A model generated the notes under the pieces. The model did not search any database. It saw nothing but the letters and a program-made list of their open reading frames with translations, and was not told the DNA's origin. Shown here in pieces: positions 8,521 to 48,845 of a stretch of DNA of 64,000 nucleotides (the stretch's first letter is position 1; every line of letters starts with the position of its first letter). Position numbers and translations under genes: made by a program. This stretch comes from Polyangiales bacterium (GTDB taxonomy: Bacteria > Myxococcota_A > Polyangia > Polyangiales > Ga0077539), in contig JAXLYG010000005.1 of the NCBI GenBank assembly GCA_046351535.1, positions 37,334 to 101,333 of the forward strand. The letters run 5' to 3'.

Positions 8521-8624
8521 GGTGTTGGTCTCCGGTGTGTCTTCGCGCACGAGCGCGGTGTGCGGCTGGTGTCGCCATTCCGAGGCGGTGTCCTCAGCGC
8601 CTCGACGAACGGTGATGTAGCCCG

Positions 8625-8644
8625 CCACTGAACATCCGTAAAGG
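8625..8644 (-). promoter_or_regulatory. Possible LexA/SOS box upstream of recA (minus-strand read CTTTACGGATGTTCAG), with the GTTCAG core of the delta-proteobacterial-type LexA box.
   Basis: The motif lies about 105 nt upstream of the recA start. It is a partial match to the remembered consensus CTRHAMRYBYGTTCAGS. Confidence 0.3.
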
Positions 8645-8646
8645 AC

Positions 8647-26328: not shown

Positions 26329-26331
26329 TCG

Positions 26332-28914
26332 ATGAAGCGTCCGCTCCTCGGCCTCACGGCCCTGGCCCTCTCGTGCTCGACGGCCACGGTGGTCAACACC
26401 ACCTACAACTTCGACCGCGCCACCGACGTCGACTTCCTCTGCCTCCGCTCGGAGAACGGGACCGTCACCGCGCTTCCGCTCGAGACCTGCGGCCTCAACA
26501 CCAGCGACAACACCTCGGCCTCGGGCAGCGCCCACCTCTACGCCGTGGTGACCCAGAGCGAGCGCGGTGAGCTCGCCGTCGTCGACCTCGCCGCCGCGTC
26601 GGGCACGTCGCTCATCGACAACAGCCCCGAGCTCCCGGGCTACTCGTTCATCCCCATCGGCGCGCTCCCCTCGGCCGTCGTCAGCGACCCGCGCACCGGC
26701 GGCGCGCCGAGCTCCGTGTGGGTCGCCAGCGCGGGCGCGCACGCCATCGAGCGCGTCGACGCCGCGACGGTGCTCTTCAACCCGCGGCGGGTGAACCCCG
26801 GCCACGAGGTCGTGCGCGCCACGACCCCCATCGCGATGAACGGCGCCCCGCGCGACCTCGCGATCGACACCGTGGGCACCCGGACGCTCCTCTACGCCAC
26901 GGTGCCCGACCGCTCCGCCGTGGCCGTCTTCGACGTCACCGACCCGCTCCACCCCGCGGACCTGGGCTTCACGCCCATCACCGCGCCGAGCGGCGCCGAC
27001 GCGGGCCTCGACGGCGGGACCTCCTCGCCCGCGCACCCGCTCGCCCTCTCCGTCGACAAGGACACGCACCGGGTCTACGTCTCCGACGACCAGTCGAACT
27101 ATGTCCACGTGCTCGCGGAGACGCCCCTCCGCGAGATCGCCCGCGTCGACGTGGGCGCCCCCACGCGCGCGCTCGCCATCTCGGGCTGGGCCCGTCGGCT
27201 CACGTGCGCCGCGGAGGCCACCGACCCCGACCACTACGCCAGCGCGCGCTACCTCTACGCCGCCCACGCCACCACGGGCGCGCTCCTCGTGTACGACCTC
27301 GCGCGCAACGCGAGGGTGAGGCCCAACCTCCTCCCCGCGCCCAATCCGCAGCGCAGGACGCTCGACCCCTCGCTCACCGTCGATCAGGTCGCCATCTCGA
27401 CGCCCGTCGTCGCGCTCGTGCCCATCAACACGACGGACTACAAGGGCCAGAACGTGCCCCCGTCGGCCGCGTGCCTCTCGCTCAACGGCTGCGCGGGCGC
27501 GGCGGCCGTCGGACCGGGGTACCTCCACGGGGTCTTCATGGGCGCCGTGCTGCGCGACGGGCGCATCACCGTGATCGACATCGACGACTACGACGCCCCC
27601 GCGCGCGCGCAGTCGCTCAACGTCGTCGACGGCACCAACGGCTACCGCTTCGTGCGCCACGCGCCGCGCGCCTCCATCGCGCTCACCGCCGCGGGCCTCG
27701 TCGTGTCGTCGCCCATCTTCTCGACCATCGTGCGAGGGACGCAGCGCATCCAGGTCGCCGAGGCTCCCACGACGCCGGCCCTCGGGTGCGTGCGGCCTCG
27801 CTCGGCCAACGACAGCACGTCGTGCCTCGTGGGCGGCGACGCGGGCGTCACGAACTACGGCGTCGAGCTCGCCCCGAGGCCGCCGGTGCCGACGAGCTTC
27901 GTGCCCGACGGCGGCGTGAGCGACGGCGGCGCCGACGGATCGACGGAGCCCTCGTGCGGACCGTCGGACGCGAGCGTCGACGTCGCGGAGCTCGACGCGT
28001 CGAGCGGCGTGGCCGCGCTGCCCGCGGACCCCTACGCCCTGCGAAACGAGGTCTGGACGCTCACCTACGAGGGCGTCATCCCGGGCCTCGACCTCTACGG
28101 CGTGGGCTTCTCCGAGGGGACGGGCGGGCGCCTCGTGCTCGACTCGCCCGCGGCGAACTTCTGCACCCGCGGCGCGCTCGCCGAGGGACCGCTCCCGAGC
28201 GCCACCGACCCCTTCGACGTGATGCACGACGAGGTCACGCTCGTGGGCGACCCGACGCCGCTCGCGGCGTACTCCGTCGCGTGCAACCAGCGCTTCGGCA
28301 CGACCACGCCCGTCAACCGCGACTTCACCATCGTCGAGGCCTGGCAGGATCACCTCGTGCTCGACGTCCCGAGCGGCGTGACCGTCGAGGAGGTGCGGCG
28401 CTGCTTCCCCCTCGCGGCGCACGCGCAGGTTCGCACGCGGAACCAGTGGCTCGTCACGGGCACGCGCAACGGCTACCTCGGCGCGGTGCGCGCGGACTCC
28501 ACGGGCCGCTGCGTCATCGACGAGGCGAAGCAGTCGGCCGTCGAGGCGCTCTCGACCGCGTGCCTCACGTCGCGCGTCCCGGTGGCGAGCCGCACGGGCC
28601 GCCGCTGCCTCGCGGGCCGCGCGTGCACGGGGGCGCTCCAGGGCGCGGTCTCGCTCGAGGCGACGCCCGTGTTCGCGAATCCCTACTTCTGCTTCCAGGT
28701 GTTCCCCTCGCCGGTGGGCGAGACCTCGCGCGACTCGCAGTTCACGTTCTCGATCGCGGGCGCGTGGGAGCCGCTGCGCCTCGAGGCGGGCTCGTTCCCC
28801 GTGTCCGCGCGCTTCCTCCCGAAGGAGAACCGGCTCTTCGTGGTCGACACGCAGTCGTCGGGCCTCATCGAGTACCGCATCGACCCCCTCGCGCGCTCTC
28901 GCGTCTTCAACTGA
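26332..28914 (+). CDS. Large Cys-rich lipoprotein, paralogous in its N-terminal part to the preceding propeller lipoprotein.
   Basis: It has a lipobox (ALSCS) and starts 3 nt after the upstream stop. Its N-terminal region resembles the 24862 gene (…HLYAVVTQSERGELAVVDL…). Confidence 0.65.
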   Translation: MKRPLLGLTALALSCSTATVVNTTYNFDRATDVDFLCLRSENGTVTALPLETCGLNTSDNTSASGSAHLYAVVTQSERGELAVVDLAAASGTSLIDNSPELPGYSFIPIGALPSAVVSDPRTGGAPSSVWVASAGAHAIERVDAATVLFNPRRVNPGHEVVRATTPIAMNGAPRDLAIDTVGTRTLLYATVPDRSAVAVFDVTDPLHPADLGFTPITAPSGADAGLDGGTSSPAHPLALSVDKDTHRVYVSDDQSNYVHVLAETPLREIARVDVGAPTRALAISGWARRLTCAAEATDPDHYASARYLYAAHATTGALLVYDLARNARVRPNLLPAPNPQRRTLDPSLTVDQVAISTPVVALVPINTTDYKGQNVPPSAACLSLNGCAGAAAVGPGYLHGVFMGAVLRDGRITVIDIDDYDAPARAQSLNVVDGTNGYRFVRHAPRASIALTAAGLVVSSPIFSTIVRGTQRIQVAEAPTTPALGCVRPRSANDSTSCLVGGDAGVTNYGVELAPRPPVPTSFVPDGGVSDGGADGSTEPSCGPSDASVDVAELDASSGVAALPADPYALRNEVWTLTYEGVIPGLDLYGVGFSEGTGGRLVLDSPAANFCTRGALAEGPLPSATDPFDVMHDEVTLVGDPTPLAAYSVACNQRFGTTTPVNRDFTIVEAWQDHLVLDVPSGVTVEEVRRCFPLAAHAQVRTRNQWLVTGTRNGYLGAVRADSTGRCVIDEAKQSAVEALSTACLTSRVPVASRTGRRCLAGRACTGALQGAVSLEATPVFANPYFCFQVFPSPVGETSRDSQFTFSIAGAWEPLRLEAGSFPVSARFLPKENRLFVVDTQSSGLIEYRIDPLARSRVFN

Positions 28915-28945
28915 CCGATCGCCCACAACCTCCTCGCGTCGCACG

Positions 28946-30676
28946 ATGGTCGACGACGACAACGACAGCTTCGAAGCTCCGCCCAACCACGGCCCCCGCA
29001 ACGCGGTGATCGCCGGCGTCGCGCTCGTCGTCGCCTCCGTCGGCGCGTGGGTCGCCAACGATCACTTCGACGGCGAGCGAAAGACGCGCGAGCTCCAGCG
29101 CGCCGCCGACGCGTGGAGCGACCTCTCGCGCTGCCTCGCGGGCGACCACCAGCGCGTCGGAGAGATCGCCCGCAACGCGCGCCGCGCCGAGCTCCGCGTG
29201 CCCGCCTCCGTGCGCGGAATGACCCGCGACGAGCGCGCGAGAGAGTGGCCCTGGCGCTGCGCGCCCCCCGCGCGGATCATGACCCGCGCGCTCTTCGAAT
29301 CGCGCTCCGACGATCCCGCCCACAGGATCCTCAACCAGTACGCCTCGCTCGCCGCCACGGAGCTCGGCCGCGGGTCGCTCCGCACCGGACGCGACGATCC
29401 CCGGCGCTACCTCGACGAGCTCTTCGCCGCCGCGTCGCGCGCCAACCTCCCGCGAGGGCGCGCCTCCGCCGTCGCCCCGCCGCCCGAGCCCATGCGCGTG
29501 CTCGACCCCGCCCGCGTGCGACCGCTCTTTCGCGGCGCGGGATCCGCGGTGCTGGCCTCCGACGAGCCCTTCGACGCGGGCGCCCTGCGCGTGCTCGTGG
29601 GGCGCGCCGAGCGGAGGCTCTGCGACTTCGATCGCACGCTGGAGTGGCCCGACTGCGTGCGCGTCGCCGAGCTCGACCACCGCGCGAGCGTGCGCCTCAC
29701 GAGCGCCCGCTACCCCGCGATGCCCGGCTACCTCGCGGACCCCGACGCACACGGAATCGGCGCGCTCCTGCACCCGGCCACGCCCGGCGGCGCCGCGATC
29801 GAAGCGCGCGCCTCTGACGCGTGGCGCGCGTCACGCGACCAGTGGATCACGGCCGTCGCCCCCGACGCGACGCGCTTCGAAGTCCGCGACGGATCGCTCT
29901 CGCTCCCGCCCGGCGCGTTCGCGGCGCCCTTCGCCGCGGGGCCTCGGATGATGGGCGAGGTCTTCGTCGCGGCCCTCTCGGCGCCGCCTCCGCCCGCGAC
30001 GCCCGACGGAGGCGTCACGCTCTTCGACGAGCCGCTCATCGCGGGCGCGGTGTCGTCCGAAGGTCCGCGGCGGTGGGTGTCTGCGCCGTCGCAGCGCGCG
30101 ACGGTGCGTGTGAGCGCCGCGGGCCTGACCGTGCGGGGCTGCGCGCTCGACGACGCCCGCGCGGTGGTGGCGTGGGGCGACGACGCGCACGGCGTGGTGC
30201 TGTGGTTCCGCAACGGGAGCTTCGTGTCCGCGCGCACCATCGACGCGGGCCACGGAACGCTCTCGTGTCACGGCGGAACGCTGCGCCTCGCGTGGTACTC
30301 GCCGCTGCCGTTTCCGAAGGCCCACGTCACGACCTGCACCGAGGCGCGCTGCACGCACGCCGAGGCGACCGCCCCGATGCTCGACGCGCCGCCGCGCGTG
30401 GTCGCGATGGGAGAGCGCGTGCTGCTGGTCTACACGGGCGACGACCTCGGCGGACTGCGCTACCGCTACGGCCCCCTCGCGACCATCGCCGACGCGCGCG
30501 AGACGGTGATCTTCGACGACGCGGCGCACGACGGCGTCGACCTCGAAGCGCCGCCGACGGTGCTCGCCCACGACGACCTCGCGGCGATCCTCGTCACGCG
30601 AAAGGGCGCGCCGTACGAGACCTGGGGGCTGCGCGTCGACGCCGACGGCTACCGCGCCATGCGCCAGCGGGAGTGA
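28946..30676 (+). CDS. Hypothetical membrane-anchored protein.
   Basis: It has a single N-terminal TM helix (AVIAGVALVVASVGAWVA) and is 576 aa with no known domain. It starts 31 nt after the upstream gene. Confidence 0.55.
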   Translation: MVDDDNDSFEAPPNHGPRNAVIAGVALVVASVGAWVANDHFDGERKTRELQRAADAWSDLSRCLAGDHQRVGEIARNARRAELRVPASVRGMTRDERAREWPWRCAPPARIMTRALFESRSDDPAHRILNQYASLAATELGRGSLRTGRDDPRRYLDELFAAASRANLPRGRASAVAPPPEPMRVLDPARVRPLFRGAGSAVLASDEPFDAGALRVLVGRAERRLCDFDRTLEWPDCVRVAELDHRASVRLTSARYPAMPGYLADPDAHGIGALLHPATPGGAAIEARASDAWRASRDQWITAVAPDATRFEVRDGSLSLPPGAFAAPFAAGPRMMGEVFVAALSAPPPPATPDGGVTLFDEPLIAGAVSSEGPRRWVSAPSQRATVRVSAAGLTVRGCALDDARAVVAWGDDAHGVVLWFRNGSFVSARTIDAGHGTLSCHGGTLRLAWYSPLPFPKAHVTTCTEARCTHAEATAPMLDAPPRVVAMGERVLLVYTGDDLGGLRYRYGPLATIADARETVIFDDAAHDGVDLEAPPTVLAHDDLAAILVTRKGAPYETWGLRVDADGYRAMRQRE

Positions 30677-30925
30677 ATCCCGAGCGCGTCGGGGCTCTTC
30701 TTCCGGCGCGCCACCGCGGCGCTCGGGGCTGATCCATCGACACGCGCCCGACGCCGGCGCCCGCGTCCAGCGCGTCGTGCGCGGCGGATCGTGGTGGTGC
30801 GGGCAGGGGACCTGCGACGGCTTCGGGCGCTGGTACCGCGGCCACGACGACCCCGCGTCGGCGTTCTCGAACCTCGGGTTTCGCTGCGCGTACGACGGTC
30901 GCGCGCCTCGGGTAGACTCCGCGCG

Positions 30926-31663
30926 ATGACCGCGCGCACACGCAGATCGCCCGACGCGAACGACGACGTACGGAAGCAGTGGCTCCTCCGCGTCGAGGCC
31001 GAGTACCGCTCGGCGACGCTCACGCAGGAGCTCACCCTCTGGCTCATGCAGGCCGGCGTCTCGCCCGACCTCATTCGCGACGGGCTGCGCATCGTCGAAG
31101 ACGAGATCGTCCACGCGGAGCTCAGCATGGAGACCTACGTCGCCGCGGGCGGAGTGGGCGGACCCACCATCGCGCGCGAGACGCTCTCGCACGCGAGGCA
31201 CCACGGAGAGAGCCTCGAAGCGGAGATCACGCGCGTCGCCGTCGATGCGTTCTGCCTCGGTGAGACCGTGGCCGTTCCGCTCTTCAAGAACCTCCGCGAG
31301 GGCTGCACCGTGCCCGTGGCGCGACGAGCGCTCGACCGCATCCTGCGCGACGAGGTGAGGCACCGCGCGTTCGGGTGGACCCTCCTCGAATGGATGCTCG
31401 AGACACCCCACGGACCGGCGCTGCGCGCGCTCATCGCGCGAGAGCTCGGCACATGGTTCACGCGCATCCGACGGTGCTACGCGCCGGCCTACGCGGAACG
31501 CATGGAGTCCATCGGCGAGGTCGACCGCGCCTGGGGGCTCATGGCGCCCGCGCGCTACGGCGCCGTCGTCGAGCGGACGTGGTCGCGTGACTGGAAGCCC
31601 CGCTTCGAAAAGCTCCAGATCGACGCGACGCCCGCGTGGGAGGCCGCGAAGCGAGGGCCCTGA
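30926..31663 (+). CDS. Ferritin-like (di-iron carboxylate) domain protein.
   Basis: It has paired E…ExxH motifs (EDEIVHAELS…, RDEVRHRAFGW) typical of ferritin-like four-helix-bundle proteins, with the ATG at 30926. Confidence 0.6.
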   Translation: MTARTRRSPDANDDVRKQWLLRVEAEYRSATLTQELTLWLMQAGVSPDLIRDGLRIVEDEIVHAELSMETYVAAGGVGGPTIARETLSHARHHGESLEAEITRVAVDAFCLGETVAVPLFKNLREGCTVPVARRALDRILRDEVRHRAFGWTLLEWMLETPHGPALRALIARELGTWFTRIRRCYAPAYAERMESIGEVDRAWGLMAPARYGAVVERTWSRDWKPRFEKLQIDATPAWEAAKRGP

Positions 31664-31730: not shown

Positions 31731-34700
31731 GTGACGAAGACCTCCGCCTCCTCCGCGTCAGAGGGCAACGCGTCGCCGCTCCAGGCGCTGCTCGTGCCCT
31801 TCCTCTGCTTCTTTCTGTCGGGCGCATCGGGCCTCGTGTTCGAGGTCATCTGGACGCGCATGCTCACGCTGGTGTTCGGCGCCTCGACGCCCGCCATCAG
31901 CACCGTGCTCAGCGCCTTCATGGGCGGGCTCGCGCTCGGCTCGTTCCTCTTCGGGCGCTTCGCCGACAGGCTGAAGTTCCCGATCCTCACGTACGCCGCG
32001 ATGGAGGCGGGCGTCGGGGTCTTCTCGCTGCTCATCCCCGTCGTCGTGCGCGGCGTGTATCCGCCCGTCTCGCACTGGATCACCAACCACGGCGGCAACC
32101 GCTTCGACGTCTTCACGCTCCTGCGCTTCGTCGTCGTGGCGCTCGTACTTCTGCCTCCGACGACGCTCATGGGCGCGACGCTGCCCCTCCTCGCGCGACA
32201 CTTCGTGCGACAGGGCGGACGCCTCGGTCAGCGCGTCGGCGCCCTCTACGCGGTCAACACCTTCGGCGCCGTGGCGGGGACCTTCCTCGCGGGCTTCTTC
32301 CTCCTCCCCGGCGTCGGCCTCGCGTGGACCAACGCCATCGCGGGCTGCACCAACCTCACGCTCGCCGCGCTGATCGTGCTGTTCCGAAAGCCCCTCCTCA
32401 ACGGCGAGTGGCCCGCCACGTGGAGAGACCTCCTCCCGTCGCGCACGGCCGAGGCGCTCCCGGTGAAGGCCCCCGCCGCCGATGAGCCCGCCGCCGAAGA
32501 CGAGCGCGACGACATCCTCGAAGACAACGGCTCACGCGCGGTGCGCACGGCGACGCTCATGGCCGCCGCGGGCTCGGGCTTCGCGGCGCTCGCCTACGAG
32601 GTGATCCTCACGCGCGCGCTCGACATGGTGATCGGCTCGTCGGTCTACTCGTTCTCGATCATCCTCATCGGCTTTCTCGTGGGCATCGGCGGAGGCAGCG
32701 CGCTCGCGTCGGCCATTCTCAAAGCGCGCCCCACGCCCCTCGCCACCGTGGCCGTCGCGGGCTCCATCGAGGGCCTCGCGCTGCTCCAGTACGTGATCTA
32801 TCAGACGAACCTCTCGCGGCTCGTGTGGGCCGTGACCACGGTGATCGTGCTGCTCGCGACCTCCATCGCGGCGACGTGGCGGAGGCCCGTGCTCGCGCTC
32901 GGCGTGACGCAGCTCCTCATCGCGGCGGGCGCGATCGTCACGTACTTCTTTCAAGACCGCATCCCGCGGATGTTCGTGTACCTCGCGATGAGCGCGACGA
33001 CGAACTGCGACCCCCACGAGGCGATCCACTTCTCGCAGCACGTGGGGACCATCCAGGCGCTCTCGTTCGTGGTCGCCCTCGCGTGCGCGCTCCCCGCCGC
33101 GGTGGGGATGGGCGCGGCGTTTCCGCTCGGCGTGCGGGCCTACTCGCGCGGTCTCTCGAAGATCGGCAGCGACACGGGCGCCGTGTACTCGGTGAACACC
33201 CTGGGCTCCATCGCGGGGTCGTTCCTCATGGGCTTCATCATCATGCCCGCGGTGGGCATGGAGACGGCGATGTACGTGGCCGTCGCGGTGAACCTCGCGC
33301 TCGCGCTGATGCTCTTCCTCGCGTCGCCCGGCGAGGAGCCCGTGAAGTACGTGCTCGTCCCCATGGCCGCGGTGCTGCTCGCGGTGACGGGAACAGGCGC
33401 CGCCCTCGGACGCGACGGACGCATCGCCCGCTCGCAGGGCGCGCTCAAGCTCTTTCCGCGCGCGTGGGACCAGGCCGAGATGACCACCGGCGTGTTCCGC
33501 CTCTCGCTCGCCGACGGCATGGTTCGCCGCCGTGACGGTCACTGCATCGAAGACGCGCCGAGCGATCGGTCGCGCAGCATCTCGGGTGACAATCCCATCT
33601 ACTACCGAGACGGCGTGACGACGACGGTGACCGTCGAGCGCTGGGCCCTCGGCGGCGAGAAGGTTCACTTCGCGCTGAAGAACAACGGCAAGGTCGACGC
33701 TTCGAACGGCGACGACATGCCCACGCAGGTGCTCGTGGCAGGCTATCCGCTGCTGCTCCACCCGCGCCCCGCGCGCGAGCTCGACGTGGCCGTGGTGGGC
33801 TTCGGCTCGGGCGTCACCATCGGGACGACGCTCCAGTTCCCCGTGCGCAGGGTCGACGTGATCGAGCTCGAGCGCTGGATCCCCGACGCCGCGCGCTACT
33901 TCGCCGACGTGAACCACCTCACGTTCACGCCGCGCAGGGAGTTCCCCTTCGTCACGGCCGACCGCCTCACGCTGCTCAACAACGACGGCAGGAACTTTCT
34001 CGCCGCCACCGACCGCCGCTACCACGTCGTGATCTCGGAGCCCTCGAACCCGTGGATCACCGGCGTCTCGAACCTCTTCACCGCGGACCACTTCCGCGCG
34101 GCGACGCAGGCGCTCACCCCCGACGGGATCTTCGTCCAGTGGGTGCAGCTCTACGAGATGTCGCCCGACAACATCAAGACGATCTACCGCACCTTCGCGT
34201 CGGTCTTTCCGCACGTGCGCGTCTTCGCCGCCGACGCGTACAGCTCCGACACGATCATGCTCGGGAGCTTCAACCCCATCGCCCTCAACCCCGCGGAGAT
34301 CGACCGCCGCCTCGGTGATCCGACCATCCGCGCCGCCGTCGAGCCCGCGCACGCCAACGGGAGCACCGACCTCCTCGCCCGCATGCTCTTCGCCTCGCGC
34401 GATGAGGTGAACCGCTTCGCCGTGATCGAGGAGCGCCTGGAGCGCGGCGAGTGGCGTTCGAACCTCCGCGCCACGGGCCTCGGCGAGTGCTCGGCCCCCA
34501 CGTGCCGTCGCCGCGACGCGCCGATCAACACCGACGACAACGCGCTCATCGAGTTCGCCGCGCCGCGCGACCTCATCGGCTTCGACGCGTTCTCGGGCTA
34601 CGTCGAGACGATGTACTCCGACGACTGGCGCTACGGACGCGTCGAGCAGCAGGTCGCGATCCCCACGGACCCCACCGAGCGCATGCGCCTGATGGCGCGG

Positions 34701-35381
34701 CTGGGCGTGTCGCTCCTCGCGGCGGGCAGGCCCTCTCGCGCGGGCGAGGTGCTCGACGCGGCGGCCTCGATCCGCGGCCCCGGCAACGCCGAGATCCGCA
34801 CGCCCGAGATGATCCGCGCCGCGAGCATCTGGAACTCCATCACCACGCCGCGCGAGCCCACGATCCGCCTGGAGCCTCCGGTGGCGAGCGCGTCGATGAG
34901 CGTCGAGGGCGCGCGTCTTCTGTCCGAGACCTTTGATCGCGCGCGCACGGCGATCGACAACGGGTCGTACAACACGGCGCTCGAGACGTTGACCTCGCTC
35001 CCCGCGAACGTGCGCGAGCAGTCGGGTCCCGGCATGCGCTTGATGTACGGCTTCCTCCTCTACCGCGCGTCGCTGGCGGAGAACGCCGATCCGCGCTTCG
35101 CAGAGGCCGCCGAGACGCTGGAGGCGCTCGCCCACGACGAGCCCGCGTGGTCGGAGCAGCACCCCGAGGTGCAGTACCTCATCGGCCGCGCGCGCTTCCG
35201 CAACGGAGATTTCGCGCTGTCGGTGAACGCGATGGGCCGCTTCGTCGACGCGTCGCGCACGCCCGTCCGCGGAGAGCACGAGCTCCCCGCGGTGCCGCGC
35301 GACCTCGACGAGCCCGCGGCGACGGCTCCCCCCGTGACCGACGCGCCCGGCGAGAGCCCCAAAGACAGCCGCGCGAGCTGA
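31731..35381 (+). CDS. Giant fusion protein with an N-terminal polytopic MFS-like membrane domain, a spermidine-synthase-like (aminopropyltransferase fold) domain and a C-terminal TPR-like region.
   Basis: More than 12 predicted TM helices are followed by a SpeE-like segment (…DVAVVGFGSGVTIGTT…YHVVISEPSNPWITGVSNLFT…) and a helical-repeat tail, 1216 aa in all. Confidence 0.85.
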   Translation: MTKTSASSASEGNASPLQALLVPFLCFFLSGASGLVFEVIWTRMLTLVFGASTPAISTVLSAFMGGLALGSFLFGRFADRLKFPILTYAAMEAGVGVFSLLIPVVVRGVYPPVSHWITNHGGNRFDVFTLLRFVVVALVLLPPTTLMGATLPLLARHFVRQGGRLGQRVGALYAVNTFGAVAGTFLAGFFLLPGVGLAWTNAIAGCTNLTLAALIVLFRKPLLNGEWPATWRDLLPSRTAEALPVKAPAADEPAAEDERDDILEDNGSRAVRTATLMAAAGSGFAALAYEVILTRALDMVIGSSVYSFSIILIGFLVGIGGGSALASAILKARPTPLATVAVAGSIEGLALLQYVIYQTNLSRLVWAVTTVIVLLATSIAATWRRPVLALGVTQLLIAAGAIVTYFFQDRIPRMFVYLAMSATTNCDPHEAIHFSQHVGTIQALSFVVALACALPAAVGMGAAFPLGVRAYSRGLSKIGSDTGAVYSVNTLGSIAGSFLMGFIIMPAVGMETAMYVAVAVNLALALMLFLASPGEEPVKYVLVPMAAVLLAVTGTGAALGRDGRIARSQGALKLFPRAWDQAEMTTGVFRLSLADGMVRRRDGHCIEDAPSDRSRSISGDNPIYYRDGVTTTVTVERWALGGEKVHFALKNNGKVDASNGDDMPTQVLVAGYPLLLHPRPARELDVAVVGFGSGVTIGTTLQFPVRRVDVIELERWIPDAARYFADVNHLTFTPRREFPFVTADRLTLLNNDGRNFLAATDRRYHVVISEPSNPWITGVSNLFTADHFRAATQALTPDGIFVQWVQLYEMSPDNIKTIYRTFASVFPHVRVFAADAYSSDTIMLGSFNPIALNPAEIDRRLGDPTIRAAVEPAHANGSTDLLARMLFASRDEVNRFAVIEERLERGEWRSNLRATGLGECSAPTCRRRDAPINTDDNALIEFAAPRDLIGFDAFSGYVETMYSDDWRYGRVEQQVAIPTDPTERMRLMARLGVSLLAAGRPSRAGEVLDAAASIRGPGNAEIRTPEMIRAASIWNSITTPREPTIRLEPPVASASMSVEGARLLSETFDRARTAIDNGSYNTALETLTSLPANVREQSGPGMRLMYGFLLYRASLAENADPRFAEAAETLEALAHDEPAWSEQHPEVQYLIGRARFRNGDFALSVNAMGRFVDASRTPVRGEHELPAVPRDLDEPAATAPPVTDAPGESPKDSRAS

Positions 35382-35387
35382 ACGCCG

Positions 35388-35942
35388 CTACCGCGCGCCC
35401 ACCACGCGCTGCCCCGTCGGACGGCGGTTCCGCGACAACACTCGCGCGCCGTCACGCACCACCACGTCATCGCCTTCGCGCGACATCACCAGCGTCGTCG
35501 AGCCGCACGTCGCCCGCGCGAGCTCCGCCCCCTGTGTCCGCTGCACGCGGCACGGACCTGCGATGCGCGTGACCTCGCCCGTCTCCGAGCCCACCGTGAC
35601 GATCACCACCACGCGGCCCGTGCGACCGCCGCTCGCGCGACGCTCATCGGTGAACTCGAAGCGCGCCGTCACCTCGCACGCCCCGCGGAAGCGATACCGA
35701 ACGCCCGACGGCGGCGCCATGCTCCACGACTGCGCCGTGCGACCGTCGCAGCCGCACCACTCGGAGCCCGCGGGGAGCGACGCGCCTCCGTCGCACACCA
35801 GACGCGCGGGGCCGTCGCAGCCCTGTGCGAAGACCTGCGCCTCGTGGGGCTGACAGGTCGGCGCGGTCTGCGCGAACGCAGGGACCGCGGCGAAGATCGA
35901 GGCGAGCGTGAACGCGCCGAGCGCGCTGCGAGAGAGCGTCAT
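35388..35942 (-). CDS. Secreted Cys-rich hypothetical protein.
   Basis: It has a signal peptide (MTLSRSALGAFTLASIFAAVPAFAQ) and 8 Cys in the mature part. The start was chosen at the internal ATG of the ORF. Confidence 0.5.
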   Translation of the reverse strand: MTLSRSALGAFTLASIFAAVPAFAQTAPTCQPHEAQVFAQGCDGPARLVCDGGASLPAGSEWCGCDGRTAQSWSMAPPSGVRYRFRGACEVTARFEFTDERRASGGRTGRVVVIVTVGSETGEVTRIAGPCRVQRTQGAELARATCGSTTLVMSREGDDVVVRDGARVLSRNRRPTGQRVVGAR

Positions 35943-36508: not shown

Positions 36509-37075
36509 TCAGCGCGGAGGCGCGGTGCCCTGGGGCATGGGCTGGCCGTTGGCGCCGCGCTCGGGCGTCATGCCGACGACGCACTGGCCGTTGACCACCG
36601 TGGCCGCTTCGTAGCGGCTCGGGCACTTGGCGATGATCTCGTCGGCGTTGAACGTGCCGCTCTCGGTGAGCTCTCCGCGCACGGTCACGCCCGCGCAGTC
36701 GCGGAACGTGTCGGGCACGATCCCGCGGTAGTGCACGGGCATCTCCGCGTGGTTGCGCGCCACGCGGAAGCGGTACTCGCTCGTGCCCGGTCGGCTCTCG
36801 ATGGAGCCCGGCGCGACGAGCCCCTCGACGCGGAGCGTGCGACCGACCCAGTGGCGCGCCTCGCCCGGGGCCATCACCTCGTCGACGTACTTCGAGTACT
36901 GCACGGCCGTACCGCGGAGCGTCGAGCCGATGAGCGCGATGGCGACCACGAGCAGGCCGAGCGCCGCCCAGCGGCCGTAGGAGGGCTTCTTCTCACGCTT
37001 CCGCGCGGAGCGTACGGGGGTCTCGACGCCGGCGGGCGCGTCGTCATGCGGATCGATCTCGGGTTCGTTGCTCAT
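36509..37075 (-). CDS. ccmE: CcmE-like heme chaperone with a C-x-x-x-Y variant motif.
   Basis: An N-terminal TM anchor and OB-fold core align with E. coli CcmE (…YRGIVPDTFRDCAGVTVRGEL…IIAKCPSRYEA versus …[21 protein letters not shown]…VLAKHDENYTP). The heme-binding His is replaced by Cys. Confidence 0.7.
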   Translation of the reverse strand: MSNEPEIDPHDDAPAGVETPVRSARKREKKPSYGRWAALGLLVVAIALIGSTLRGTAVQYSKYVDEVMAPGEARHWVGRTLRVEGLVAPGSIESRPGTSEYRFRVARNHAEMPVHYRGIVPDTFRDCAGVTVRGELTESGTFNADEIIAKCPSRYEAATVVNGQCVVGMTPERGANGQPMPQGTAPPR

Positions 37076-37163
37076 GGGGAGAAAGTGAGTCGGACCGTAG
37101 TATCCCGACGTTTTCGTGTCCACCCCGCAGACCGCGTGAATCTGGCACCATCGGCGTCCCGCC

Positions 37164-39947
37164 ATGCGACTTATCAGTGCCTCCGCGGTCCTCACGCTCG
37201 CGCTCTCGCCCTTCGGTTGCACAGACACATCGACGGGTACGCCCGCGGACTCGGGCCTCGACGCGCCGCGCGACACCCTCGACGAACGCCCCACGCTGCC
37301 TCCGTACGTCGACCCCTACGCGTGCCCGAGCACCCGCGACGAGCTGCCCGCCCTCGATGATCCGCTCGACGCGGCGGAGGCGCGCGCGGGGACCATCCGC
37401 AACGAGGCCGAGCTCATCGGCGGAGAGGGCGCAGCGGGCCGCGTCGGTCACCTCAAGATCTACAACAGCCGCGTGCGCTTCGTGGTGCAGGGCCGCGTCG
37501 GCACGACGGGGTCATCGCGCGCCATCGGATACAGCCTCTACGGCGGCAACGTGATCGACGCCGACCGCGCGAGGCCCCGCGGCGCGCAGGGTCAAGACGT
37601 GTTCCGCGAGACCTTTCCTGCGTTCGCGTTCCGCGTGTCGACGGTCGACGAGGTGGCCGTCGCGTGCGACGGATCGAACGGACGCCCCGCGGCGATCCGC
37701 GTGGTGGGCGTCGACGCGCCGAGCCGCATCCTCGGGATCCTCGACAACCTCTCGCGCGAGCAGGGTGTGCGGATGGTCACCCACTACGTGCTCCGCCCCG
37801 ACAGCGACGTGCTCGAGATCATCACCGAGGCGCAGTCGCTCGACGGCTGGTCGATCAGCAACTCGGCCGCGGGAGACTTCCTCGGCTTCGGCTCGGCGCT
37901 CTCGCTCTTCAACGGCGAGACGGGCTTCGGCAACATCGCGCGCGCCTCGATGCCGCTCACCTGGCTCGCCGCCGTGAGCGACCCCGGCGAGGGAGACCGC
38001 CACGTCTCCTACGCCATCGCGCCCTCCGAGGGACCCATGAGCGTCCCCGTCGTCGACGCGTCGGGCACCGTGGGCCTCTACAACGCCGTCAACGCCGCGA
38101 AGGGAGCGCCCGCGCGCTTCACCCGCTACCTCTCCGTCGGCGGCGGCGACGTGGCCTCCGCCGTCGAGCCCATCCTCCGCGCGCGCCACGAGCCCTTCGG
38201 CGTCGTCACCGGACGCACCACTTCGAACGCCCTCGTCTACGCCTACCGCGACGCGTACACCGTCGGCGCCAACGCGCGCTCCATCGCCCGCGCGCAGATG
38301 GACGGCTCGTATCGCATGGCGCTCCCGCCGGGCACCTACGCGATCACCGCCGTCGACGAGGGCGTCACGCGCGCCGCGCCCGTGATGGTCACCGTGACCG
38401 CCGACGGGATGGCCACGGCGAATCCCACCACCGGGTCGTCGGGCACGATCGCGCTCGACCTCGGCGTGCTCGACGCGATGGGAGCCCGCGTGCGCGCGCC
38501 CGTGAAGGTCAGCCTCCGCGGCGTCGACGTCGAGGCCCCCGACGACGCGATGGGCGAGCTCGAAGGCGAGCGCGAGTCCTTCGGTCTGCACCGCGCGATC
38601 TTCAGCCTCACGGGGCAGGAGCGCTACGCCGTGAAGCCCGGCCGCTACCGCGCGACCGTCTCACGCGGCGACGAGTACGACGTGGCCACCGCCGAGGTGA
38701 CCGTGGCCGCGGGCGGAGAGGCCACGCTGCGCGCCGACGTGCGACGCGTGGTCGACACCGCGGGGATGATCTCCGTCGACCTGCACCAGCACACGGTGGG
38801 CAGCATCGACTCGCCGCGCGCCCTCTGCGGACGCGTGCTCGAGAACGTCGCCGAGGGGCTCGAGTTCGCGGCCACGACCGACCACGACAACGTCACCGAC
38901 TTCGCGCCGTGCATCCGGTCGCAGAACCTCGGCGCGTGGTTCAACGCGATGCGCGGCAACGAGATCTCCGTCGTGGGCCTCGGCCACTTCAACGCGTACC
39001 CGCTCGTGGTCGACCCCGCCGATCCCTTCGCGCTCATCGGCGCGCAGTACTGGGCGGGCCTCGACGCGCAGCAGCTCTTCGACAAGGTGCGCCGCGAGGC
39101 GGGCGGTCCGCTCCTCCACGTGTCGCACCCGCGCTCCAACGGCTTCAAGGGGTACTTCACGTCGATCAACCTCGACCCCGTGAACCTCACGGGCCGCGTC
39201 GCCCTCGCGCGCAACTGGGAGGCGATGGAGGTCAACGAGTCCTTCGGCACGCCCGAGCAGTACACCGCGGCGTCTGACGCGACGCTCTCGGCGCTCGCGC
39301 GGAGAGACGCCTCGGCGATCCCGACGCTGCGCGACTTCTTCTCGTTCATCTCGCGCGGCGATCACGTCTGCGCGCTCGGCAACAGCGACACGCACGGCCG
39401 CAACAACGGCTCGGGGTGGCCGCACAACCTGGTGATGGTCGGCGAAGACCGCCCCGATCAGGTGACGCCCGCGGCGATCACCACGGCGATCCGCGCGCAG
39501 CGGGTGCTCGTCTCGAACGGCATCGTGGTGCGCATCCGGTCGGGCGGCGCGGTGCACATGGGCGCGGGCGACGTCGTGCGCGCCACGGGCGGAACCGTCG
39601 ACCTCGAGCTCGACGTGCAGGCCGCGCCGTGGGTCGACGTGCGCTCGCTGGTGCTCTTCGAAAACGGCCGTCCGCTCGCGCTCACGAGCGACGGACGCGG
39701 CGGCCTCGACGCTTCGAACACGGTCGGCGCCGCGGGCTGGGGCATCGCGCTCGACGCGACGTCACCGGGTCGCTCGGGCGTCACGCGGCTGCGCGCCACG
39801 GTGCATCTGCGACCGACGCGCGACAGCCACTACCTCGCGCTCGCGCGCGGCGGATCGCTCGCGCCCGTCGGGGCAGGGGACGCCTTCGGTTACACCAACC
39901 CCGTCTACGTCGACGTCGACGGGAACGGCTGGCAGCCCGCGATGTGA
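37164..39947 (+). CDS. Large lipoprotein with a C-terminal PHP/CehA-McbA-type metallohydrolase domain.
   Basis: A lipobox (LSPFGC) is followed by PHP motifs (VDLHQHTVGS…ATTDHDNV…GNSDTHG) in a 927-aa protein. Confidence 0.75.
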   Translation: MRLISASAVLTLALSPFGCTDTSTGTPADSGLDAPRDTLDERPTLPPYVDPYACPSTRDELPALDDPLDAAEARAGTIRNEAELIGGEGAAGRVGHLKIYNSRVRFVVQGRVGTTGSSRAIGYSLYGGNVIDADRARPRGAQGQDVFRETFPAFAFRVSTVDEVAVACDGSNGRPAAIRVVGVDAPSRILGILDNLSREQGVRMVTHYVLRPDSDVLEIITEAQSLDGWSISNSAAGDFLGFGSALSLFNGETGFGNIARASMPLTWLAAVSDPGEGDRHVSYAIAPSEGPMSVPVVDASGTVGLYNAVNAAKGAPARFTRYLSVGGGDVASAVEPILRARHEPFGVVTGRTTSNALVYAYRDAYTVGANARSIARAQMDGSYRMALPPGTYAITAVDEGVTRAAPVMVTVTADGMATANPTTGSSGTIALDLGVLDAMGARVRAPVKVSLRGVDVEAPDDAMGELEGERESFGLHRAIFSLTGQERYAVKPGRYRATVSRGDEYDVATAEVTVAAGGEATLRADVRRVVDTAGMISVDLHQHTVGSIDSPRALCGRVLENVAEGLEFAATTDHDNVTDFAPCIRSQNLGAWFNAMRGNEISVVGLGHFNAYPLVVDPADPFALIGAQYWAGLDAQQLFDKVRREAGGPLLHVSHPRSNGFKGYFTSINLDPVNLTGRVALARNWEAMEVNESFGTPEQYTAASDATLSALARRDASAIPTLRDFFSFISRGDHVCALGNSDTHGRNNGSGWPHNLVMVGEDRPDQVTPAAITTAIRAQRVLVSNGIVVRIRSGGAVHMGAGDVVRATGGTVDLELDVQAAPWVDVRSLVLFENGRPLALTSDGRGGLDASNTVGAAGWGIALDATSPGRSGVTRLRATVHLRPTRDSHYLALARGGSLAPVGAGDAFGYTNPVYVDVDGNGWQPAM

Positions 39948-44511: not shown

Positions 44512-44551
44512 CACAGAACGCGCGAGCCTGTCACTACGCGCGATGCGGCGA

Positions 44552-47422
44552 TCAGTGCGCCAATCCTGCGCGCAGCGTCTCCAGGGCGCTCCGCCGCGCA
44601 CCGGATGGCATCTGCGAGATGGCGCGGTCGAGCTCCTCGACGGCCTGCGAGGGCGCGCCGAGCATCGCCAGCGTCTCGGCCATGCGCACGTGGAGCTCGG
44701 GGGCTTCTTCCCCCGTCTCGCGCGCCACGGAGAGCGCCTCGGTGTAGCGCGAGAGGGCCCTGCGTCCGTCGCGCCGCCGGGCCGCGAGGTCGCCGAGCTT
44801 CACGAGCGCGCGAAAGCGCTCGGCCACGGGCGGAGAGAGCTCGAGGGCCGCAGTGAGGTCCGCCTCGGCGCTCCCCGGATCGCGCTGCGACGCGAGCATC
44901 GCGCGCGTGAGATAGAGCCTCGCGAGGAGCGTGCGCGGCGTCGGATCGCGGGGGTCGAAGCCCACGGCGAGCTCGCCCTCACGGAGCGCGCGGGCGCGGT
45001 CTCCCTGCCGCTCCGCGAGCACCATGGCGCGCGTGTGGGTCACGGCCTCGCGGCGCGACTCGCTCTCGTCGAGGAGGCGCATCCACGCGCCCCCCTGCGA
45101 GCTGTCGCGCACGAGCCCCGCGAGCGGCAGATCATCGACGCGCGCGAGGAGCGCGAACACGTCGTCCGTCGCGTCGCGGTAGAGCAGCGAGGGCGCGCGG
45201 AACTCCAGCGAGAGGTCCGACGCGCGCAGCAGCGGAGCGTCTCCTGCCACGGCGCGCACGCCGCCGACGCCCGCGACGAAGCGCGCGAAGAGGGCGGCCT
45301 GGTCGTTCACGCCCGCGACGCGCAGGAGCCGCGACACCGTGGGGTCCTCCGCGCGACGGAGGAACGTGTCGAGGTCCAACGATCCGTCGCGCAGCCCCAC
45401 GAGGAGGTAGTCCTGCCCCGGCGTGATCTCGACCATCGTCGCGCGCGGAAACACCTCGCGGAACGTCGCCACGATCGACGCCACCACCTCGGCGCTCGTG
45501 CTGTACGCGTGGAACCACTGCCCGAACGCGCCCCCCGGTCGCAGCCTCCGCCTCGCCGCTTCGAAGGCCTCGCGCGTGAAGAGGTCGCTCATGCCCGCGA
45601 CCCACGGGTTCGACGGCTCGCTCACGATCGCGTCGTACGTGCGAGATGTTCCGCGGAGGTAGTGCGCCGCGTCGGCCCTCACCACGCGCACCCGCGCATC
45701 GTCGAGCACGTGGTGGTTGGCGCGCGCGAAGTCCGTCCTCGCGGCGTCGACAACCGCACCCACGAGCTCCGCCACTTCGACCGAGCGAACCCCCGGAACC
45801 GAGCGCGCGGCGTCGGCGGTCATCCCGCTGCCGAGCCCCACCACGAGCACGTCGCCCGTCGCGCGGGCCATCGCCACGGGGAGGATCCCCACGAGCGTCT
45901 GCGTCGTCGCGTCTCCGAGGCTCGTCGCGTCGACCTTGCCGTTGATCTGCAACAGCACGTTGCCCTCGTCGTCGCGCCGCAGCGCCACGGTGGCCTCGGG
46001 GTCGTCGCGTCGCCACGCCAGCCGCCCGAGCTCCACGTCGCGCGAACCCGCGTACAGAAAGGGCCCGCGCAGCATCGCGGCGGCGTCGCCCCGCAGCGTC
46101 ACGCGCCCCGCGACGAGCGCCACCACGGCCGCCGCCACGACCGCCATCGGACGCGAGCGCACCAGCGCCACGGCCACCGCGAGCACCACGCCGACCGAGA
46201 GCGCCGCGCGTTCGAAGCCGAGGCCCGGCATCACCGCGAAGGTCATCGCGAGCGCACCCGCGACGTTGCCCGCGGCCATCGCGCCGAGCGTGCGCCCGTT
46301 GGCCTCTCCGTCGCTCGCGCCCGGCGTCAGCGCGCGCGCAGCGAACGCCATCGCGGCGCCCACGCACGCGACCACGGGCAGGGCCACCACCACGAGCGCC
46401 CCATACGCCGAGAGCCACAGCACGCGCTGCGACGGAGCACCGTGCGCGAGCAGCCGCTCGGCGAACTCGGGCATCGCCGCGACGAGCGGCGTCGAGAGCA
46501 CCACGGCGACGACGGCCGCCACCGTGAGCCATCCGAGGATCACGCGCGCGCCCTTCGCGTCGCAGCGCGAGACGCGACGCAGCGAGGCGAGCTCTCCGAT
46601 CGCGAGGGCCGTGACGTGCGCCGCGAGGGCCGCCGCGAAGGCGAACGCGCTCGGACCGAAGGCCAGCGACGACGACCGCGCGAGCAGCACCTGCCACGCC
46701 GTCGAGGCCACGCCGAGGCACGCGAGCGCCACCACGACGGCGAGGTCTTCGCGGCCACCATCGGCCTGTTTTTCAGCGCTTTCGAGAGCCTTCGAGACCT
46801 GCGCCTCCGCTGCGAAGCGCGACGCCGCGAGGGCCGTCAGCGCGTACACCGCGGCCACGCCCGCGAGCGTGTTCGCCACGCCCACCGCGGGACACACCAC
46901 GAAGGTCGTCACGAGCGCCGCGAAGGCCGCGCCGAGGGAGCTCGCACCGCCCGCGAGCGCTGTTCCTGCACCCGCGCCGCGCGCCATCAGCGAGACCGCC
47001 GCGGGGTACGCGCTCCCCGCGAGCGCACCGGGAATCGCCGTCAGCGCGAGCGCCACCACGAGCCGCGCGAGGTCGCCCGCCCACTGCGCCCGCTCCGAGA
47101 GACCCACGAGCGCGCGCGCGAAGAGCGACGTCACAGACCCCGGCGCGAGCGCACCCACGAGCGCCCAGAGCGCGAGACCTCCGTGCGATGCGACGAGCGC
47201 GCGACGCGGCGAGAGAACGCCCCGCGCGAGGAGCCGCGAAGACCACCACGCCCCCAGACCGAGCGCGCCGAGCACGCCCGCGAGGGTCCCCGTCTGCGAG
47301 ATCGCAGAGCTGCCGAGCATGGGGCGCAGCACGCGCGCGCCGAGGGCCTCGCCCGCGAGCGTCGCGCCGCCGCTGAGGGCCATGAGTGCGGCGATGAGGC
47401 GCGCGGTCGGACGGAGTCGCAT
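44552..47422 (-). CDS. Second giant fusion protein (MFS-like membrane domain, spermidine-synthase-like domain and TPR-like tail), a paralogue of the gene at 31731..35381.
   Basis: It has the same architecture and shares the motifs VVGLGSGMT and YDAIVSEPSNPWVAGMSDLFT, 956 aa in all. Confidence 0.85.
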   Translation of the reverse strand: MRLRPTARLIAALMALSGGATLAGEALGARVLRPMLGSSAISQTGTLAGVLGALGLGAWWSSRLLARGVLSPRRALVASHGGLALWALVGALAPGSVTSLFARALVGLSERAQWAGDLARLVVALALTAIPGALAGSAYPAAVSLMARGAGAGTALAGGASSLGAAFAALVTTFVVCPAVGVANTLAGVAAVYALTALAASRFAAEAQVSKALESAEKQADGGREDLAVVVALACLGVASTAWQVLLARSSSLAFGPSAFAFAAALAAHVTALAIGELASLRRVSRCDAKGARVILGWLTVAAVVAVVLSTPLVAAMPEFAERLLAHGAPSQRVLWLSAYGALVVVALPVVACVGAAMAFAARALTPGASDGEANGRTLGAMAAGNVAGALAMTFAVMPGLGFERAALSVGVVLAVAVALVRSRPMAVVAAAVVALVAGRVTLRGDAAAMLRGPFLYAGSRDVELGRLAWRRDDPEATVALRRDDEGNVLLQINGKVDATSLGDATTQTLVGILPVAMARATGDVLVVGLGSGMTADAARSVPGVRSVEVAELVGAVVDAARTDFARANHHVLDDARVRVVRADAAHYLRGTSRTYDAIVSEPSNPWVAGMSDLFTREAFEAARRRLRPGGAFGQWFHAYSTSAEVVASIVATFREVFPRATMVEITPGQDYLLVGLRDGSLDLDTFLRRAEDPTVSRLLRVAGVNDQAALFARFVAGVGGVRAVAGDAPLLRASDLSLEFRAPSLLYRDATDDVFALLARVDDLPLAGLVRDSSQGGAWMRLLDESESRREAVTHTRAMVLAERQGDRARALREGELAVGFDPRDPTPRTLLARLYLTRAMLASQRDPGSAEADLTAALELSPPVAERFRALVKLGDLAARRRDGRRALSRYTEALSVARETGEEAPELHVRMAETLAMLGAPSQAVEELDRAISQMPSGARRSALETLRAGLAH

Positions 47423-47444: not shown

Positions 47445-48062
47445 CTACGCGCGCTTCCGAGGCGAGAAGGGAATCAGCGACGAGGGCGCGCTCAGCGCCG
47501 TCACGATCGACTCGATCTGCGGCGCCACGCGGTCTCGCATCGCGGCGTCGTGCTGCGCGAGGCGCGTAAGGTGCTCCAGCGCGTCGAGCATGGCGCGCTG
47601 CCGACGGCCCTCGATCACCGCGTGCGCGATGAGCGCCACCACGACGGCCGCCACCGCGCCCGCGAGCCCCAGGAGCAGGAGCTTCGGGAGCACGTCGTCG
47701 AAGATCACCCGCAGCGCGAAGAGCGCGAGGAGCACCGCCCCGAGCGCCCACGCGGCCACGCGCCCCGAGCCCTCGCGTCGCGCGCCGCGGACCGCGCGGC
47801 TCACGATGTCATCGAAGGCCGCGCCGGCCTTCACGTCGGCGGTGAGCGCGGGCGCGGGCTCCGCGGGCGCGCCACGCCCGAGAAGCTCGGACAGCGGCGC
47901 GTTCAAGGGCGGGAGCTCGGGCTCCGCGGTCTTCACGGCCTCGCGCGTCTCCGTCGAAGAGAGCACCGCGATGGCGGCCTCGGAGGTCTGCGTCGGAGCG
48001 GGTGTTGAAGAGTCCACGACGTGCTCGGCGCGTACCGTACCGCAGCGACCGCGAAAACTCAC
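47445..48062 (-). CDS. Hypothetical small membrane protein with 2 TM helices; the start is uncertain.
   Basis: It has two hydrophobic helices (WALGAVLLALFALRVIF and LLLLGLAGAVAAVVVALIAHAVI) and sits between the ABC ATPase and the fusion gene with gaps of about 22 nt. Confidence 0.45.
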   Translation of the reverse strand: MSFRGRCGTVRAEHVVDSSTPAPTQTSEAAIAVLSSTETREAVKTAEPELPPLNAPLSELLGRGAPAEPAPALTADVKAGAAFDDIVSRAVRGARREGSGRVAAWALGAVLLALFALRVIFDDVLPKLLLLGLAGAVAAVVVALIAHAVIEGRRQRAMLDALEHLTRLAQHDAAMRDRVAPQIESIVTALSAPSSLIPFSPRKRA

Positions 48063-48759: not shown

Positions 48760-48845
48760 CGGCAGGGGCCAACCAATACCCCATCTCACACGCCCACCGC
48801 ACGCTCTTGCGAACGCGCACCGCCTGCCGCATAAACGCCGCCCTG

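Follow-up and report, generated by a model that had tools for sequence, protein, structure and literature searches.

Two fused membrane proteins with a conserved, altered spermidine-synthase-like active site in a Polyangiales bacterium

What does a spermidine-synthase-like domain do when residues that define spermidine synthesis have been replaced? The question is raised by two genes in a 64,000-nucleotide stretch of DNA (the window) from a Polyangiales bacterium (assembly GCA_046351535.1, contig JAXLYG010000005.1, positions 37,334 to 101,333). The genes, here called A and B, encode proteins of 1216 and 956 amino acid residues, respectively. Each protein has a polytopic membrane domain, followed by a domain similar to the spermidine synthase SpeE and by a tail that resembles tetratricopeptide repeats (TPR). 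An earlier note on this DNA had described the common architecture and the altered motifs, and had proposed either a non-canonical substrate or a non-catalytic, scaffold-like role.

In the present study, we compared A and B with characterised enzymes and with their homologues. By sequence and by analogy, both proteins carry the full residue signature of spermidine-synthase-like N-methyltransferases that depend on S-adenosylmethionine (SAM), without the signature of aminopropyltransferases. We consider, with a probability of about one half, that the SpeE-fold domain is an active transferase that binds an adenosyl-sulfonium cofactor, that it is not a putrescine aminopropyltransferase, and that it catalyses SAM-dependent alkyl transfer, most probably N-methylation.

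Active-site residues of the SpeE-fold domain

The motifs were mapped by three methods: phmmer against chains of the Protein Data Bank (PDB), a 61-sequence family profile against the PDB, and local alignment of hidden Markov models with 1INL and 1IY9. All three placed VVG[FL]GSG on the GGGDGG loop of SpeE, and [VI]SEPSNPW on the loop after strand 4, xDS[TS][DE]P. The strings are VVGFGSGVT and VISEPSNPW...LFT in A, and VVGLGSGMT and IVSEPSNPW...LFT in B. The earlier note had aligned these strings with the same loops, and each of the methods bore this out. It had also named a canonical catalytic loop elsewhere in the domain as an observation that would speak against the assignment; a motif scan of the whole proteins found neither G.G[DE]G nor [DE][ST][ST][DE]P elsewhere in A or B. 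The best structural matches of the modelled SpeE-like domain were all aminopropyltransferases, and the domain of B matched AtSPDS2 (6O64) in phmmer with a value of 8e-14.

Three residues of SpeE hold the terminal amine of the aminopropyl group: the Asp of the glycine loop, the catalytic Asp, and a Gln. Putrescine is deprotonated by the catalytic Asp, and the ribose and the adenine N6 of the cofactor are bound by a Glu and an Asp, respectively (PMC6514230). The loop Asp narrows the pocket so much that the SAM carboxylate does not fit (PMC1282579). The D103I replacement in Datura spermidine synthase (SPDS) abolished aminopropyl transfer and created methyltransferase activity, and the D101I replacement in Thermotoga maritima SpeE lowered kcat about 2000-fold (PMC3725402).

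Counting residues on the 1INL alignment, we found that Asp101 of T. maritima SpeE corresponds to Ser693 of A, Tyr76 to Thr665, and Asp173 to Asn773. The catalytic Asp170 corresponds to Glu770, so that an acid is kept there. His77 (Gln80 in the human enzyme) corresponds to the conserved Gln666, Glu121 to Glu712, and Asn/Asp152-Gly to Asp752-Gly753. The proposal of the earlier note that the acidic residues had been replaced was thus correct for Asp101 (to Ser) and Asp173 (to Asn), but not for the catalytic position, where Glu is still acidic.

To judge these changes across the family, we tabulated 240 homologues, of which 120 are A-type, 38 are B-type, and 82 are distantly related. The glycine-loop position of Ser693 is occupied by Ser, Thr, Ala, or Gly, and by Asp or Glu in none of the 240. 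The GxGxG loop is invariant, and Glu712 and Asp752 are present in 236 and 239 sequences, respectively. At position 770, an acid stands in 225 of the 240 (205 with Glu and 20 with Asp), and 13 sequences have Gln; position 773 holds Asn, His, or Asp. Pro774, Trp775, Trp804, Tyr808, and Asp840 are near-invariant. The acceptor pocket of A (T665, Q666, E770, N773, W775, W804, Y808, and D840) is altered but strongly conserved. Of the 120 best homologues of A, 111 contain SEPSNPW and nearly all contain G[FWL]GSG; SEPSNPW was also found in 123 of 147 newly retrieved cluster representatives that were scanned.

Because the changes recur in about 240 homologues in which Glu712 and Asp752 are kept, the sequence comparison indicates that the altered motifs are a selected trait, a hallmark of the family, and argues against decay. 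This was the key check suggested by the earlier note, which had asked whether the Asp-to-Ser/Glu/Asn substitutions are conserved among orthologues; they are invariant or nearly so.

Some sub-families have other loops after strand 4, namely SQPSHPW, TSDP[LF]DPW (with both acids kept), and ADPIHPW. The TSDP[LF]DPW sub-family (P0190, P0204, P0209-P0211, P0216, P0219, P0221, and P0224; 790-830 residues) combines this loop with G[CL]GAG; it keeps both SpeE loop acids and has no glycine-loop Asp, and it includes records labelled Vicinamibacterales and Gammaproteobacteria. Since this sub-family keeps the acids and yet has lost the loop Asp, the loss of the loop Asp seems to be older and more general than the change after strand 4.

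The residues kept in A and B can be compared with those of two characterised spermidine-synthase-like methyltransferases. Human METTL13-C is a SAM-dependent methyltransferase of the eEF1A N-terminus that uses the Post I Glu, the DG motif found only in spermidine synthase (SpdS), and an essential Asp at the position of SpdS Asp173 (PMC6109062). NHMT of Aspergillus nidulans (AN4663) resides in the endoplasmic reticulum (ER), and its seven transmembrane (TM) helices precede a domain that carries the annotation spermidine synthase. It has Ile322 at the position of the loop acid and an essential Glu340, and it methylates His1 of secreted lytic polysaccharide monooxygenases; its authors raised the question of how SAM is supplied in the ER (PMC10349129). 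From its substrates, we infer that NHMT faces the lumen.

Like these two enzymes, A and B combine a SpeE-like fold with the absence of the acid from the glycine loop. Glu712, Asp752-Gly753, and Glu770 stand at the positions of the Post I Glu, the DG motif, and SpdS Asp173 (human numbering; Glu in place of Asp). The NHMT protein was rebuilt from the DNA in Supplementary Note 3 of its report (PMC10349129) after repair of optical character recognition errors, with Ile322 and Glu340 at their published positions. Aligned with the A-type profile by hhalign (probability 90%, E 1.4e-6), it paired I322 with S693, E340 with E712, and D388 with E770.

Likeness and difference can be stated for each of the known systems. 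NHMT resembles A and B in having a polytopic domain with an odd number of helices before the spermidine-synthase-like domain, a replaced loop acid, the ribose Glu, and an acid after strand 4. It differs in that its 7-TM domain, reportedly restricted to fungi, is unrelated to that of A and B, in lacking a TPR tail, and in the loop after strand 4 (HDVFTG instead of SEPSNPW), and pairwise identity is about 20-27%. METTL13-C (5WCJ) is joined to a second methyltransferase domain in a soluble, cytosolic protein; over 181 aligned residues it has no match to the N-terminal beta domain, and its sequence similarity was below the phmmer thresholds used. SpeE (1INL/1JQ3, 2O06, 6O63-65, and 1UIR) shares with A and B the two-domain fold (an N-terminal beta part and a Rossmann core), the residues that bind the ribose (Glu) and the adenine (Asp-Gly), the Gln that follows the Tyr position, and the LFT segment, but A and B are fused to a transporter and a TPR tail and have four changed active-site residues. 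Plant putrescine N-methyltransferase (PMT) is derived from SPDS and shows that replacement of the loop Asp turns a spermidine synthase, which uses decarboxylated SAM (dcSAM) for aminopropyl transfer, into an enzyme that uses SAM for methyl transfer (PMC3725402). PMT is soluble, keeps the DSSDP loop, and has Thr for Gln79, whereas A and B keep the Gln and change the loop. An argument for SAM binding from a PMT-style change of Val106 to Thr was dropped, since T. maritima SpeE itself has Thr at this position.

Family membership and domain organisation

A and B (Table 1) are real genes, with a G+C content at third codon positions (GC3) that matches the coding signature of this genome (the window has a G+C content of about 72%). 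The positions, strands, and lengths that the earlier note had given for them were confirmed, as was the layout common to both. In BLASTP, the two proteins are 33% identical across 275 residues of the SpeE-like domain (E 2e-33), and similarity between the membrane parts is just faint. Each protein has a separate set of orthologues, and the sequences indicate ancient paralogues, arguing against a recent duplication. No third copy of this type was found within the window. That two diverged copies lie close together had been noticed before. In a related metagenome-assembled genome (MAG), the orthologues of A and B (85% and 72% identity) lie about 16 kb apart with different intervening genes. The proximity is thus inherited in this lineage, yet it defines no operon.

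Table 1. Features of genes A and B and of the gene directly upstream of B (positions in the window; res, amino acid residues)
Feature	Position	Strand	Length, basis or remark
Gene A, fused MFS / SpeE-like / TPR-like (A-type)	31731..35381	+	1216 aa; GC3 0.95
A, MFS domain, res 16-531	31776..33323	+	6 TM, charged cytoplasmic linker 218-268, 8 TM; model
A, GRFADR in TM2-TM3 loop	31953..31970	+	read from sequence; G75 and R80 near-invariant in 61 homologues
A, extra TM helix, res 538-568	33342..33434	+	pLDDT 89-97; six residues past last core helix; helix count 15, odd
A, SpeE-fold domain, res 620-850	33588..34280	+	Pfam Spermine_synth, res 668-833, 50.5 bits
A, motif I GFGSG, res 690-694	33798..33812	+	Ser693 at SpeE Asp101 position
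A, VIELE	33858..33872	+	Glu712 as ribose-binding Glu; pairs with SpeE Glu121, METTL13 Glu524, NHMT Glu340
A, NNDGRN	33978..33995	+	Asp752-Gly753 as DG motif for adenine N6; Asp752 in 239/240 homologues
A, SEPSNPW, res 769-775, loop after strand 4	34035..34055	+	Glu770 for Asp170, Asn773 for Asp173
A, QWVQLYE, conserved segment after strand 5	34137..34157	+	W804 and Y808 near-invariant across family
A, conserved region after Rossmann core, res 851-960	34281..34610	+	Cys920/Cys925, NTDDN..IE..AP; motif residues invariant in 61-sequence alignment
A, TPR-like tail, res ~981-1180	34671..35270	+	all-helical, TPR-like; TPR repeats at the C-terminus in Pfam scan
Gene B, paralogue of A, same architecture (B-type)	44552..47422	-	956 aa; GC3 0.91
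B, membrane domain, res 7-443	46094..47404	-	read as 6+6+1 TM; hhalign to A-type membrane profile
B, SpeE-fold domain, res 466-680	45383..46027	-	Pfam Spermine_synth, res 514-667, 43.7 bits
B, motif I GLGSG, res 529-533	45824..45838	-	Ser532 at SpeE loop Asp position (AtSPDS1 Asp131)
B, SEPSNPW, res 601-607	45602..45622	-	alignment to SpeE
B, TPR tail	44573..45190	-	Pfam TPR_19 32.2, TPR_2 30.6; above cut-offs, tail scanned alone
205-aa single-TM protein directly upstream of B	47445..48062	-	same position in related loci L005 (55% identity) and L007 (37%)

Both proteins pass the cut-off (40 bits) of NF037959, "fused MFS/spermidine synthase" (MFS, major facilitator superfamily), with 96.9 bits for A and 47.5 bits for B, and both have the MFS-type domain N-terminal to the SpeE-like domain in one polypeptide. 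Scores against the speE equivalog models are far lower than the cut-offs: 55.6 (A) and 54.2 (B) versus 249.55 for TIGR00417, and 61.6 and 71.5 versus 260 for PRK00811. The PRK03612 (NF002956) model, which stands for a membrane-bound polyamine aminopropyltransferase, gave 97 and 78 bits versus a cut-off of 472. A and B are therefore, by sequence, members of a large family that already has a name, and no structural feature sets them apart from it. The active-site residues do not bear out the activity that this name suggests, and the family is probably mis-named.

The family is widespread. Among the scored candidates, A has 4394 homologues at E<=1e-5, many of them named "fused MFS/spermidine synthase" at the source. 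An exhaustive HMMER search of 1.84 billion representatives of clusters at 50% identity yielded 13756 clusters at E<=1e-3, of which 2190 reached E<=1e-30. An A-type gene is present in at least 577 species-level genomes, of which the best 80 are all Myxococcota (Polyangiales, Sandaracinaceae). A 99%-identical copy of A occurs in "MAG: Myxococcota bacterium isolate MAG_1", and the culturable Sandaracinus amylolyticus has an A-type homologue (P0061). For B, about 40 orthologue clusters were found at >=46% identity, and its distant relatives include records labelled Vicinamibacterales, Gammaproteobacteria, Eisenbacteria, and others.

The earlier note had left it to be decided whether the N-terminal domain has a transporter fold or an oligosaccharyltransferase-like fold. 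A model of residues 1-600 of A (mean predicted local distance difference test, pLDDT, 88; predicted template-modelling score, pTM, 0.90) has 15 membrane helices: six (residues 16-217), then after the linker (218-268) eight (269-531), and one more (538-568). Structure comparison of this model identified the MFS fold, with two homologous six-helix bundles of which the second contains an inserted helical pair; a GT-C or oligosaccharyltransferase-like fold was rejected. Pfam MFS_1 scored above its cut-off for A and not for B. The closest structures are MFS transporters of the DHA1 / SLC18 type (VMAT2, VAChT, and NorA), at 10-15% identity. A differs from these in having two extra helices in the C-terminal bundle and a post-core helix that leads to a soluble part of about 650 residues. 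The TM2-TM3 loop of A contains GRFADR, which resembles MFS motif A, and the membrane-embedded E92 and R132 are invariant. These residues are compatible with a working transporter, and no proof of one.

The membrane domain of B aligned with the A-type membrane profile in hhalign (probability 97%, E 1.6e-11 over residues 13-276), and its helices were counted as 6+6+1 by eye from the sequence and by a crude hydropathy scan. With PRK03612, residues 8-222 of A (one membrane module) align, and residues 215-635 of B (the second module and the SpeE part) are colinear. PRK03612 differs in having a single 6+1 helix module, and we take it to keep GGGDG.

On which side of the membrane does the SpeE-like domain lie? 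In 60 homologues, the inside loops contain about 15 Lys and Arg residues per protein and the outside loops about 2, which places the N-terminus inside, as in MFS proteins. Because the last core helix of the MFS domain ends on the cytoplasmic side near residue 531 and one more helix follows, the SpeE-like domain and the TPR tail are predicted by helix parity to be periplasmic. The extra helix is also found in B by sequence reading, and presumably an odd extra helix is present in the 7-TM relatives as well. The positive-inside rule gives no direction for the last helix (2.2 Lys and Arg before it and 2.4 after it in 252 proteins). Two apparent single-helix homologues (P0325 and P0240) were rejected as evidence on topology, since they begin at contig bases 8-9 and are fragments.

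Cys920 and Cys925 of A (CxxxxC, 34488-34505) are kept together in 54-55 of 61 A-type proteins, and the soluble part of B contains no cysteine. The pair could be a metal site or could form a disulfide; the latter would agree with a location in the periplasm. To judge from the alignment with SpeE, the conserved QWVQLYE segment of A probably borders the acceptor pocket.

Possible functions of the SpeE-fold domain

If A and B are SAM-dependent transferases, the lost glycine-loop Asp would point first to a switch of cofactor from dcSAM to SAM, which we suspect because this Asp makes SpeE specific for dcSAM. The cofactor would be held by the retained ribose Glu and adenine Asp-Gly, with an acid (Glu) kept at the catalytic position, and the acceptor of the alkyl group would be an amine-bearing molecule. 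The MFS domain would anchor the enzyme, and it would probably also supply or remove the substrate or the cofactor. The TPR tail would probably recruit a protein partner or the substrate. In B, sub-threshold Pfam matches to MTS and Methyltransf_25 lend weak support to a methyltransferase.

Several observations weigh against this interpretation. A and B resemble METTL13-C and NHMT in their general fold, and no more closely than they resemble SpeE, which is the closest fold; no specific kinship to the two methyltransferases over SpeE was found. Homology of the 7-TM domain of NHMT with the membrane module of A and B was rejected (hhalign probability 0.07). The cofactor might also be dcSAM, because two of the three residues that hold the aminopropyl amine in SpeE have their counterparts in Gln666 and Glu770. 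By helix parity, the domain is predicted to be periplasmic, and no supply of SAM is known in this compartment; such a location conflicts with the invariant residues for an adenosyl cofactor, unless the cofactor is supplied across the membrane. In the loci compared, no conserved neighbour gene that hints at a substrate was found. Literature searches on the family name and the domain combinations found no functional study of the bacterial family, and thus no biochemical datum; the sole trace was a 1020-residue "spermidine synthase" mentioned as a bystander open reading frame (ORF) beside a myxobacterial gene cluster.

With the SpeE-fold domain and the TPR tail in the periplasm, a bolder interpretation arises. 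We put forward, tentatively and as a possibility that we would not yet expect to be correct, that A and B are extracytoplasmic SAM-dependent methyl- or alkyl-transferases acting on exported proteins or envelope amines. They would then be a bacterial counterpart of NHMT, and each would use its MFS domain to move the cofactor or the acceptor through the membrane to its own catalytic domain.

The loss of the SpeE residues could also mean that catalysis was abandoned. As a pseudoenzyme, the domain would bind a protein or a small molecule (a polyamine, methylthioadenosine, or a nucleoside-like compound) and would gate, feed, or regulate the MFS domain, with the TPR tail as a scaffold. The absence of SpeE Asp101, Tyr76, and Asp173, the predicted extracytoplasmic site, where no SAM is expected, and the presence of the TPR tail are consistent with such a role. 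However, pseudoenzymes usually lose their cofactor residues, whereas GxGxG, Glu712, and Asp752 are invariant here. The acid at the catalytic position is also widely kept, and the whole pocket is strongly constrained. We therefore regard a pseudoenzyme as unlikely. Of the two options in the earlier note, the non-canonical substrate or chemistry is supported by this conservation, and the scaffold is disfavoured, since the cofactor residues are retained.

A genuine aminopropyltransferase, which would use dcSAM in a modified pocket and act on an atypical acceptor, such as a polyamine that is longer or bound to the membrane, while the MFS domain moves polyamines, seems to us improbable. It would account for the best structure and sequence matches, which include the broad-acceptor enzymes 1UIR, 7XIF, and 6BQ2, and for the equivalents of human Gln80 and Asp173, which are kept as Gln and Glu. 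The colinearity of B with PRK03612 and the amine transporters among the closest MFS structures also fit. Against it, the loop Asp is absent from every homologue, and mutation of this residue nearly abolishes the activity of the T. maritima and Datura enzymes (PMC3725402). Tyr76 and Asp173, which contact putrescine in SpeE, have given way to other residues, the speE equivalog scores are about 54-72 bits against cut-offs of about 250-260, and speD adjoins neither copy, in the window or in the loci of relatives.

A SAM-dependent 3-amino-3-carboxypropyl transferase, acting in the manner of nicotianamine synthase or BtaA on an amine or a lipid head group whose product the MFS domain handles, is very unlikely: the loss of the loop acid makes room for the SAM carboxylate, nicotianamine synthases also lack the motif I acid (PMC1282579), and the geometry of SpeE-fold aminoalkyl transfer is kept, but Pfam and NCBIfam scans showed no similarity to nicotianamine synthase or BtaA, and the idea is inferential throughout.

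Gene neighbourhood and meaning of the family

The neighbouring genes gave few clues. A conserved operon as a clue to the function of A was rejected, as the 85%-identical orthologue of A has entirely different neighbours and those in Sandaracinus differ again. When 17 proteins of the window were compared with 86 loci by tblastn, just the 290-residue ORF upstream of A (30791-31663) was kept, in five very close relatives. No speD was found near either copy in the window or in the loci of relatives compared. The 205-residue protein directly upstream of B, which has no family match beyond a weak CcmD hit, may be a functional partner of B, judging from its kept position. A CcmA-like ABC ATPase gene (48085-48789, minus strand) upstream of it is also kept in L005.

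Four ORFs upstream of A (24862-31663, plus strand; 488, 860, 576, and 290 residues) have a good coding signal and faint hits to beta-propeller repeats, and no Pfam family was found for them. A species-representative MAG contig (L008) with a 99%-identical gene A has about 1.3 kb extra between A and the next ORF (7911-9240) compared with window positions 35381-35388. This DNA contains a short tandem-repeat tract and a 295-residue minus-strand ORF, and represents an indel between close strains. On the 3' side of B, a class I/II aminotransferase ORF (43288-44601, minus strand) is listed with an overlap of 50 nucleotides with the 3' end of B. The ORF probably begins further downstream than listed, and this neighbour is not kept in the loci of B orthologues.

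Between A and B, a CcmE-domain protein (36509-37294, minus strand) has an N-terminal extension of about 130 residues. Its ORF overlaps, 5' to 5', that of a 927-residue CehA/McbA-family metallohydrolase (37164-39947, plus strand) by about 130 nucleotides, and at least one of the two start codons has probably been set too far upstream. The cytochrome c maturation genes (CcmE, and the CcmA-like gene at 48085) are scattered and form no single operon.

The family and its name were known already. A and B belong to it as ordinary members, and their residue pattern argues against the named activity. Thousands of bacterial proteins are named "spermidine synthase", and those found here are without the residue that defines this reaction. 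Reading members of the family as genes for polyamine biosynthesis will mislead metabolic reconstructions. The signature that they have in common with two characterised spermidine-synthase-like methyltransferases makes the family testable as membrane-anchored SAM-dependent transferases. If the outward-facing topology is true, the family would raise the questions of how a SAM-type enzyme works outside the cytoplasm and whether the fused transporter supplies its cofactor.

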